In this document: piece by piece, positions 35,743 to 37,231 of the stretch
How the letters are laid out: each line of letters begins with the position of its first letter
Position numbering within the stretch: the first letter of the stretch is position 1
Source: Shigella phage SFN6B
Direction: 5' to 3' (one strand)
Sequence record: KY684082
Length of the DNA: 43,036 nucleotides
Position numbers and translations under genes: made by a program
Notes under the pieces: model-generated
Told to the model about the DNA's origin: nothing
Databases searched by the model: none
Seen by the model: the letters and a program-made list of their open reading frames with translations, nothing else

Positions 35743-36231
35743 ATGGCTGAGGAGAATAGGGCCACAGTGGTCTATGATGAGACCAGCCCCAGTGGGTTGC
35801 GGTACGTAGCCAGCAGGTTTAAGTCTAGAGTAGGAGCCCCTGCGGGGGCCTTAAACTCCAAGGGCTATTATGACCTACGCTCTGCGCCTACTGGGTGTAA
35901 CTCTAGGATGGCGCACGCCGTTGTGTGGGAACTACACAACGGGGGCATTCCAGAGGGGTTTGAAGTTGACCACATTGATGGCAATCCAAGTAACAACCGA
36001 GTAGAGAATCTACGTTTGGCTACCCGTTCTTTGCAGGCCTTTAACCGGGGAACACGAACCGACAAGCGCTCAGGTCTACCTAAAGGCGTATTCGTTAACG
36101 GTACAGGATTTATGGGGCGGACGTCTCGGGATGGTGTTCGTATATCCAAGACTTTTAGCACTGTAGAGGAAGCTGCCGCCTGGGTTGCCGAGGCCCGTAA
36201 AGTCTCGGCCGGGGCCTGGGTGCGTAGCTAA
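35743..36231 (+). CDS. HNH homing endonuclease, paralog 4
   Basis: YDETSPSGLRY... VDHIDGNPSNNRVENLRLATRSLQ; ORF track 35698 trimmed to ATG 35743 (GGAG upstream). Confidence 0.8.
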   Translation: MAEENRATVVYDETSPSGLRYVASRFKSRVGAPAGALNSKGYYDLRSAPTGCNSRMAHAVVWELHNGGIPEGFEVDHIDGNPSNNRVENLRLATRSLQAFNRGTRTDKRSGLPKGVFVNGTGFMGRTSRDGVRISKTFSTVEEAAAWVAEARKVSAGAWVRS

Positions 36232-37231
36232 GGAGGTCATCATAGCTTACTCATGGCAAGAGCAAATTAAGCCAGCTGGTACCCAGGATATCCAGTGCGA
36301 TATTGAGTATTTGGACAAGTCCTATATTCATGTATACCTAGACGGTGCGGAAACCACTGGGTACACCTGGACCAGCGCTACTAATATAAGATTGAATTCG
36401 GCCCTAACTGCGAGCACTACAGTGCTTCTCATTCGTAAGACTGAGCGCGAGTATCTGTATATTGAGTTTGCTAGCGGCTCTCCGTTCATCGAGGTGAACG
36501 TAGATTCTCAAAATACACAGTTCTTGCACTTGGCGCAAGAGCTTGTGGAAGGCAGGGCTATCCCCGGATTCTACGGGGATATAAGCATGAACGGGTACCG
36601 CATCACGAATGTATCAGACCCGGTGGACTTGCAAGATGCTGCTACCAAGCACTACGTAGACTCTCGTATTGATGCAGAGCACGCCGCTCGGGTATCCGCT
36701 GATGCCACCATCAAATCCTACGTTGTTTCTGAGGACGCCAGGCTAGACGCCCGCATCGACACAGAACGCGCCGCTAGGAAGGCTGCGGACGATGCCTTGA
36801 GTATGCGTACCTCTGCTCTGGAAAACACCTTTATAAGTGGTGTAGAAACAGTAAGCTACCCGTGGAGCACGGTGCTTACAGAGGATACAGACGAGGTAAC
36901 TCCAGGGCTAAAGTTTACTAAGGCTATAGTAGAACTTAATGGTGTTGGGCAGATTCGTGGCTACAGTTTCGAGATTGTAGATAACACCATAATGTTTGCC
37001 GAGACTCTCCCTGCAGGAACGATCGTAGCTGCTCGATTAGGTGCTGACGTAACTGCAGGGGATGGTTTCGCTACACAAGCATCTGTAGACCACTTAGCCA
37101 ACTCGTTAGGGGCTTTGGCGTATTCAGGTAAAGCAGGAGCTGTGGCGGATGCAACCGGTGCTGCGGACGTAGTGGATCAACTAAATGCATTACTAGCAGC
37201 ACTGCGTGCCAGCGGGGTGCTAACATCCTAA
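36185..37231 (+). CDS. Tail fiber or adaptor protein (T7 gp17 N-terminal domain-like)
   Basis: IEYLDKSYIHVYL and GDISMNGYRITNVSDPVDLQDAATKHYVD parallel T7 gp17 N-terminal blocks; true start uncertain (see findings). Confidence 0.7.
   Translation: MPRPVKSRPGPGCVAKEVIIAYSWQEQIKPAGTQDIQCDIEYLDKSYIHVYLDGAETTGYTWTSATNIRLNSALTASTTVLLIRKTEREYLYIEFASGSPFIEVNVDSQNTQFLHLAQELVEGRAIPGFYGDISMNGYRITNVSDPVDLQDAATKHYVDSRIDAEHAARVSADATIKSYVVSEDARLDARIDTERAARKAADDALSMRTSALENTFISGVETVSYPWSTVLTEDTDEVTPGLKFTKAIVELNGVGQIRGYSFEIVDNTIMFAETLPAGTIVAARLGADVTAGDGFATQASVDHLANSLGALAYSGKAGAVADATGAADVVDQLNALLAALRASGVLTS

Follow-up and report, generated by a model that had tools for sequence, protein, structure and literature searches.

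The gp16-tail fiber junction of Shigella phage SFN6B

Shigella phage SFN6B (sequence record KY684082; assigned to Drulisvirus, KP34-like, Autographiviridae/Slopekvirinae) was analyzed over a stretch of 43,036 nucleotides (nt), hereafter called the window. A free-standing HNH homing-endonuclease gene lies in it between the gene for a gp16-type internal virion protein and the gene for a tail fiber, and the tail fiber gene probably starts at an ATA codon directly behind the HNH gene. The GenBank record nearest to positions 35300-37300 is that of Escherichia phage ZH5 (94% identity). The junction comprises the following features.

31479..35741, + strand: gp16-type internal virion protein gene, from the list of open reading frames (ORFs); stop codon TAA at 35739-35741; annotated in relatives as an internal virion protein with an endolysin domain
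35730-35734, + strand: modest Shine-Dalgarno (SD) sequence GGAGA in the 3' end of gp16 (-6.6 kcal/mol)
35743..36231, + strand: free-standing HNH homing-endonuclease gene, 162 amino acids; ATG at 35743, TAA at 36229-36231; Pfam HNH_3
36185..36187, + strand: TTG, canonical start codon in the tail fiber frame but within the HNH gene; an unlikely alternative start
36229..36237, + strand: perfect extended SD TAAGGAGGT over the HNH stop codon TAA, from its pairing energy and its fixed spacing in all carriers
36239..36241, + strand: ATC, second near-cognate codon, in frame, judged unlikely as the main start
36242..36244, + strand: ATA, proposed tail fiber initiation codon, read as formylmethionine (fMet); at the position of the ancestral ATG and 5 nt past GGAGG
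36242..36253, + strand: recoded 12-nt block ATA GCT TAC TCA, the first four tail fiber codons, linked to the HNH cassette, with amino acids 2-4 kept
36242..37231, + strand: tail fiber/tailspike-adaptor gene, 329 codons plus stop, with a T7 gp17-type N-terminal domain

The HNH gene starts 1 nt past the gp16 stop codon, on the ATG GC that forms the tail fiber start in genomes without the HNH gene (HNH-less genomes); GGAGA, which drives the tail fiber ATG in those relatives, precedes the HNH gene in the window. Its product contains an HNH domain (Pfam HNH_3, PF13392, E = 1.5e-20, residues 56-96), whose motif DHIDGNPxNN is invariant across four alleles. The gene is embedded neither in an intron nor in an intein: it has its own start and stop, uses another frame than the tail fiber, and fills the whole insert. 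At its right end, the order is TAAGGAGGT-CATC-ATA GCT TAC TCA TGG. No promoter or terminator was found on the + strand between the HNH and tail fiber genes, and a tRNA scan found no tRNA genes.

The tail fiber frame lies at +1 to the HNH frame, with 65 nt of overlap. It is open from 36167, behind the stop codon TAG at 36164, and the only start-like codons before ATA are CTG 36173, TTG 36185, and ATC 36239; there is no ATG between 36164 and 36587 (codon 116). A preliminary description of this locus had placed an ATG at 36185, 47 nt inside the HNH gene; the position is correct, but the codon at 36185-36187 reads TTG. Its account of the sequence past the HNH stop was accurate: we read a strong SD, AAGGAGGT, at 36230-36237, followed in frame by ATC at 36239 and ATA at 36242, and the protein encoded downstream resembles T7 gp17 at its N-terminus. 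Counted from ATA, the tail fiber matches PF03906 at residues 13-143 (E = 7.7e-18; 65.1 bits against a cut-off of 25.2), and it is 86-96% identical to the tail fibers of relatives. It also matches PDB 23sh_r, "tail fiber gp9" (E = 5.5e-161), with residues 1-141 aligned to residues 1-141, and the residue encoded by ATA corresponds to M1. Chain r of 23sh is a solved virion protein of the Drulisvirus type that begins M1-A2-Y3-S4-W5 (MAYSWQEQ).

ATA occupies the position of the tail fiber ATG

A nucleotide search with the HNH gene identified 15 GenBank genomes in which it lies at the gp16-tail fiber junction. Fourteen of them and the window were scored at the tail fiber start position (15 sequences; Henu1_1 was left out) and compared with four HNH-less Drulisvirus genomes (phiHAO78-1, KpV48, PWKp1, and PSK2). 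In these four, the tail fiber gene begins straight after the gp16 stop (gp16-TAA-T-ATG) and reads ...GGAGACGATTAAT ATG GCA T(A/T)C AGC TGG CAA..., encoding MA(Y/F)SWQEQ. The HNH carriers have the same left flank, but its ATG GC opens the HNH ORF, and the tail fiber resumes on the other side of this ORF as ATA GC(T/A) TA(C/T) TCA TGG CAA. The two states of the junction are as follows.

Empty site (HNH-less allele): GATTAATATGGCATACAGCTGGCAAGAG
Occupied right junction: …CATCATAGCTTACTCATGG…

By this alignment, ATA is the positional equivalent of the ancestral tail fiber ATG, and it stands at the start position in 15/15 of the Drulisvirus HNH-carrying sequences scored. That ATA falls exactly on the place of the old ATG, that the HNH gene uses the old ATG, and that the non-AUG start would be part of a mobile cassette had been missed in the preliminary description.

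The Drulisvirus HNH genes fall into three clades (the window and ZH5; KMI3 and KMI5; and the HF0522 group of 11 genomes), which share ~79-82% nucleotide and 88-90% protein identity. The HF0522 clade has ACC in place of the ATC at 36239 of the window, whereas KMI3 and KMI5 read ATC ATA. Outside Drulisvirus, Enterobacter phage phiKDA1 (Koutsourovirus) carries a 65%-identical HNH gene at the same junction, which reads CAT TAAGGAGGTCATT ATC GCC TTT TCC TGG; its SD and spacing are those of the Drulisvirus carriers, and ATC takes the start position. As phiKDA1 reads ATT ATC, most lineages have two adjacent AUH codons (AUA, AUC, or AUU). Four HNH-less relatives of phiKDA1 read ATG GCT (T/C)TC AG(T/C) TGG, and the HNH gene is present at the junction in 1/5 Koutsourovirus genomes. 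The arrangement thus recurs in all 16 related genomes with the HNH gene (Drulisvirus plus phiKDA1), and neither the HNH nucleotide search nor a search for relatives of the phiKDA1 allele found a carrier with ATG at the tail fiber start. At the level of sequence, these comparisons establish the anatomy of the junction, its conservation, and its linkage to the HNH gene.

Empty sites predominate: 15 records with the HNH gene stand among about 213-240 related ones, and in more than 200 records gp16 is followed directly by the tail fiber. When GenBank phages were searched by tblastn with the HNH protein, 648 records matched, and only the 15 Drulisvirus genomes and phiKDA1 had the gene at the gp16-tail fiber junction. 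In IMG/VR, a search with the HNH protein returned distant HNH homologues only, and a search with the junction pattern TGGGTGCGTAGYTAAGG returned a single chance match. A metagenome scan with a four-sequence HNH alignment yielded 22 distant loci, none of which had a T7-type tail fiber after the HNH gene by tblastn. BUCT86 and Aeromonas PT2 were considered as further junction cases and set aside, their HNH genes being at other sites.

HNH paralogues with 40-45% identity occur elsewhere in the Drulisvirus genomes BUCT86, Bp5, IME323, VLCpiA1o, and Henu2_3, either close to the right end of the genome or behind a gene of 2 kb.

A conserved strong SD precedes the near-cognate codon

Together with the T of the HNH stop codon, AAGGAGGT gives TAAGGAGGT, which is complementary to the 16S rRNA 3' end over all 9 nt. 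The 43 kb contain this sequence a single time, where 0.16 occurrences per strand would be expected. When the best SD was chosen for each of the 48 putative + strand genes, its pairing with the anti-SD (-12.7 kcal/mol) was the strongest of all. The SD is kept as TAAGGAGGT or TAAGGGGGC (G-U wobble) at a fixed spacing in all carriers of the two genera, so that ATH lies behind an SD of -11.1 to -12.8 kcal/mol, the GGGGG variants pairing through G-U wobble; in HNH-less genomes, the tail fiber ATG follows a modest SD of -6.4 to -6.6 kcal/mol. The gap from GGAGG to ATA is 5 nt and invariant among carriers, as against 2 nt to ATC, and the spacer sequence near ATA is variable. The folding of 36190-36290 is unremarkable (z = -0.43).

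In the window, the TCA and TGG codons also create an out-of-frame ATG 11 nt past ATA (36253-36270; ATG GCA AGA GCA AAT TAA, 5 codons). With 16 nt between it and GGAGG, and missing from phiKDA1 (TCC TGG), it is probably irrelevant.

Translation of the tail fiber begins at or before codon 2

Between carriers and HNH-less genomes, codons 2-4 of the tail fiber differ by synonymous changes (Ala GCA/GCT/GCC; aromatic TAC/TAT/TTT/TTC), and Ala, Tyr/Phe, and Ser are kept. The serine at codon 4 is encoded by AGC or AGT in 8/8 HNH-less genomes examined and by TCA or TCC in all HNH carriers. Since codons 2-4 have been recoded and their amino acids retained, the comparison shows that they are translated and that translation begins at or before codon 2.

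The sequence on the two sides of ATA evolves differently. Within the last 63 nt of the HNH gene, 7/11, 7/11, and 7/9 of the substitutions between clades are at third positions of HNH codons; read in the tail fiber frame, the same stretch differs at 8/21 residues, as compared to 2-7/50 in the first 50 codons past ATA. Between HNH clades, these 50 codons have 9 nt differences, 7 of them at third positions, and 2/50 amino acid changes. By its substitutions, the in-frame stretch upstream of ATA is evolving as HNH coding sequence and not as tail fiber. The candidate starts in it differ by lineage and in distance, and none is common to all lineages; only the module of SD plus ATH is shared. A codon-by-codon listing revealed no canonical start codon able to give the conserved N-terminus MA[YF]SW, which aligns to ATA.

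Given these observations, we consider it likely that the tail fiber starts at ATA 36242-36244, which would be read by the initiator tRNA as fMet and yield (M)AYSWQEQ..., the same product as from ATG in the HNH-less relatives; that AUA itself is the initiation codon is what we infer from the alignments. The preliminary description had offered two alternatives, a non-canonical AUA/AUC start and a start at 36185. The former stands and is narrowed to AUA, because this codon is aligned with the ancestral ATG, is found in 15/15 Drulisvirus carriers, and lies 5 nt past GGAGG; the latter, built on a misread TTG, is unlikely. The HNH-carrying phages are viable lytic isolates, e.g., HF0522 (PMC11827489), which we count in favor of a start at ATA. 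A sequencing error behind ATA was considered and rejected, as the same base appears in 15 independently sequenced genomes.

Several points weigh against a start at ATA. In E. coli reporters, AUA supports initiation at only ~1-2% of AUG, which is low for an essential structural gene (10.1101/063800), and our literature search found no protein-level or ribosome-profiling record for any carrier phage. Each lineage has an in-frame canonical codon upstream (TTG in the window; ATG in the HF0522 clade and phiKDA1), so that an N-terminal extension free of constraint is conceivable. ATH is linked to the cassette, and there are just four lineages (phiKDA1 and the three HNH clades of Drulisvirus); the 16 genomes are thus not 16 independent observations. 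Finally, the account by which the missing ATG would reflect immunity to the HNH endonuclease (see below) is plausible and hypothetical.

Alternative readings of the junction

The tail fiber might instead start at a canonical in-frame codon within the HNH gene and carry a variable N-terminal extension of 10-26 residues, tolerated or removed, which we regard as unlikely. The codon would change with the lineage: in the window it would be TTG 36185, in the HF0522 clade an ATG located 20 nt into the HNH gene, and in phiKDA1 another ATG. Such a start is annotated for HF0522, P284, and phiKDA1; in the window, no stop interrupts the frame from 36167 on, and TTG 36185 is among the start codons of table 11 and is shared by all Drulisvirus HNH carriers. 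However, TTG has only weak SD pairing before it (-3.8 kcal/mol), with the nearest GAGG too far off at 15 nt; its conservation is due to its overlap with the HNH Trp-Val-Ala codons, and phiKDA1 has TTC instead. The window, ZH5, KMI3, and KMI5 lack the ATG of the HF0522 clade. The extension, 19 residues from TTG, varies in length among lineages, differs at 8/21 residues, and changes with the HNH frame. A start upstream would also leave the conserved perfect SD at a fixed distance from ATH unexplained, and the solved homologues begin M1-A2-Y3. It predicts extension-specific tryptic peptides, EVIIAYSWQEQIK for the window type and GATIAYSWQEQIK for the HF0522 type. Initiation at ATC 36239, or at both ATC and ATA, would produce M-I-A-Y-S-W and appears more improbable still. 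ATC is near-cognate, in frame, and past the SD, and adjacent AUH pairs are found in most lineages, but it lies only 2 nt past GGAGG, where pairing inside the allowed SD window falls to -7.9 kcal/mol; it is also replaced by ACC in the 11-genome HF0522 clade and is out of register with the ancestral ATG.

We give very little credence to readings in which another event joins or restores the reading frame, namely a +1 frameshift or hop that would create an HNH-tail fiber fusion, or splicing of a group I intron that would restore ATG. The tail fiber frame is indeed +1 to the HNH frame, with a 65-nt overlap, and HNH genes of T7-like phages are sometimes intron-encoded (PMC3428280). On the other side, a slippery site is lacking: as its last sense codon the HNH gene has AGC (Drulisvirus) or CAT (phiKDA1), and by codon-anticodon reasoning neither permits +1 re-pairing. 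Nor does the junction resemble a prfB-like frameshift, as the SD is downstream of the stop rather than upstream and no shift-prone codon is conserved between the genera; a fusion would place a 160-residue N-terminal addition on the tail-docking domain. For an intron, Rfam gave no group I or II match at E <= 10, the HNH ORF fills the insert but for 10 nt, too little to hold a ribozyme core, and no choice of boundary that restores ATG also puts a U at the 5' splice site. The local fold (z = -0.43) favors neither event. It is just as improbable that the full-length tail fiber is not made, whether due to an internal start (GTG or ATG, e.g., ATG 36587) or because the gene is decaying. The first in-frame ATG comes only at codon 116, and ZH5 and KMI5 are annotated with internal GTG starts; yet the first 50 codons past ATA are under purifying selection (2/50 amino acid changes between HNH clades), codons 2-4 keep their amino acids through recoding, a truncated protein would lose most of the PF03906 tail-attachment domain, which is made up by the N-terminal 115 codons, likewise under purifying selection, and the carrier phages are viable isolates.

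The HNH gene appears mobile and is linked to a recoded 12-nt block

The HNH genes of HF0522 and 128-44573 are 99.2% identical, with only 76.2% and 83.5% identity in the two flanks; the reverse holds for the window and 128-44573, which have 97.5% identity in the tail fiber and 78.9% in the HNH gene. Judged by these identities, the HNH gene is horizontally mobile independent of its flanks, and this mosaic is as expected of a free-standing homing endonuclease gene that spreads by recombination. The ATGGC/ATAGC repeat at the two ends of the insert was considered as a target-site duplication and rejected: the phiKDA1 HNH gene begins ATG TCA, and the repeat is thus not general.

The boundary of the change at the right junction is sharp. 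Compared to the nearest HNH-less genome, carriers have 6/12 differences in the first 12 nt of the tail fiber gene; the 120 nt that follow have only 0-4 for six of the seven pairs (Fisher p = 2.5e-5 to 1.4e-7), and the contrast is less marked for KMI5 (27/120, p = 0.046). In phiKDA1, BLAST homology to the HNH-less SDFMU_Pec starts exactly at nt 13. Between HNH-less genomes of the two genera, the first 12 nt are more conserved (2-3/12) than the following stretch (~45/120). A search for traces of HNH loss found the recoded block in none of ~225 HNH-less records.

Because the 12-nt block is conserved in the manner of homing-endonuclease targets and half altered in carriers, we considered that the non-AUG start may be enforced by conflict: the HNH protein would target the first ~12 nt of the tail fiber gene, including its ATG, and the ATG of carriers would remain altered for self-immunity. 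Self-immunity would require the loss of AUG, in exchange for a near-cognate AUA or AUC, because methionine has one codon only; the perfect SD brought by the cassette would make up for the weaker codon. We hold this idea tentatively, as somewhat less probable than its opposite; for site-specific cleavage by the HNH protein of the window, the block is a predicted target only. If it is correct, restoration of ATG would expose a carrier to its own endonuclease, which would explain the lack of reversion over ~20-35% divergence, and a selfish element would dictate the choice of start codon in an essential host gene. The persistence of ATH would in part be mechanical, through its linkage to the cassette; only the absence of A-to-G or C-to-G reversion over that divergence suggests selection.

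A proposed mechanism and its relation to known systems

A tail fiber start at ATA can be accommodated in the following mechanism. A mobile free-standing HNH cassette would have inserted at the gp16-tail fiber junction, and the HNH ORF would have taken the original modest SD and ATG of the tail fiber for its own translation. The 3' end of the cassette would bring a substitute initiation region, in which TAAGGAGGT, overlapping the HNH stop, is followed by a spacer of 4 nt, then by AUA (Drulisvirus) or AUC (the Koutsourovirus phiKDA1) as near-cognate AUH codon, and finally by three recoded codons. A very strong SD at optimal spacing would make up for the weak codon, as would the abundance of late mRNA. 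Ribosomes that end at the HNH stop, 10 nt upstream of ATA, may re-initiate there and add to de novo initiation. Tail fiber initiation is thus possibly coupled to HNH termination, to an extent that we can only infer; the local RNA fold shows nothing that would demand coupling.

The HNH gene resembles the mob/seg genes of phage T4, such as mobE between nrdA and nrdB, in which a nuclease ORF occupies a short gap between conserved genes ("intronless homing"; PMC2988022). Like the free-standing endonucleases of T4, it is polymorphic for presence and absence, stands in tight translational juxtaposition to its neighbors, spreads with flanks, and is accompanied by differences between carriers and non-carriers near the insertion (PMC2988022). 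Unlike the mob/seg genes, it takes the SD and ATG of the essential gene downstream and supplies a substitute SD with a non-AUG codon. The review of homing endonucleases in PMC2988022 describes no free-standing endonuclease that leaves its neighbor with a non-canonical start.

Conserved AUH starts behind a strong or extended SD are known for infC and pcnB of E. coli (AUU) and for infC, ccpN, citZ (AUA), and cvfC1 (AUU) of S. aureus, and, as with these natural AUH starts, reduced but real initiation with Met is to be expected here. The tail fiber differs from the cellular genes, in which the weak codon is thought to be regulatory (autoregulation by initiation factor 3, metabolic tuning), in that it is a phage structural gene whose codon is linked to a selfish element. 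AUA, AUC, and AUU initiate at ~1-2% of AUG in E. coli, where an N-terminal Met has been shown for AUC; the confirmed natural non-canonical starts of E. coli are infC and pcnB only, both AUU, and AUA and AUC are unconfirmed in enterobacteria (10.1101/063800). In S. aureus, the natural AUA starts all have an extended SD and reach ~10-30% of AUG (10.1101/2025.06.19.660503). The weak codon and strong SD of the carriers match the pattern reported for the natural AUA/AUU starts of that species (10.1101/2025.06.19.660503). An "AUA" in a paper on phage SPP1, considered as a precedent, turned out to belong to a codon-usage table only. Literature searches for a description of the ATA start or for virion proteomics of a carrier phage returned nothing, and we found no earlier description of a free-standing homing endonuclease combined with a near-cognate start, two phenomena that are each known by themselves. 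If it is confirmed, the conserved AUA/AUC start of this essential virion gene, in phages of E. coli, Klebsiella, and Enterobacter, would extend a very short enterobacterial list, and the junction would exemplify cost and compensation between a homing endonuclease and its host gene, whose initiation signals are taken and replaced.

The tail fiber starts in GenBank disagree with one another. In ZH5 and KMI5, the annotated start is an internal GTG, at a cost of 60-80 residues; in the HF0522 clade it is the ATG 20 nt inside the HNH gene, and in phiKDA1 an ATG 62 nt inside it. The ZH5 record has no annotated HNH coding sequence. The tail fiber is mis-annotated as truncated, extended into the HNH gene, or missing because gene callers cannot call ATA. 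This touches the cataloguing and engineering of receptor-binding proteins, and some of the Klebsiella phages involved are studied for therapy.

Other features of the flanking genes

The tail fiber of the window shares its PF03906 N-terminal domain with the T7 gp17-type and KP34-group tailspike adaptors (PDB 23sh, "tail fiber gp9"; 8es4, Gp44; 8vbx, gp47). Compared to the 23sh-type adaptor, the gene differs in its start codon, its ribosome-binding site, and a variable repeat that is 7 residues shorter. The 7 residues DVGDARL of ZH5 and phiHAO78-1 are absent from the window at ~36658, after residue 139. This gap falls within a "DARLDxRID" repeat region of variable length among relatives, and KpV48 and HF0522 have larger gaps nearby.

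The gp16 protein of the window (1420 amino acids) contains a GNAT acetyltransferase domain at residues 311-401 (window 32409-32681; Pfam Acetyltransf_1, E = 1.3e-06, and related GNAT models). Many relatives have a shorter gp16 of 1232 amino acids, and the long form is common to KpV48 and ZH5; the GNAT stretch resembles an optional domain insert in a protein that is ejected.

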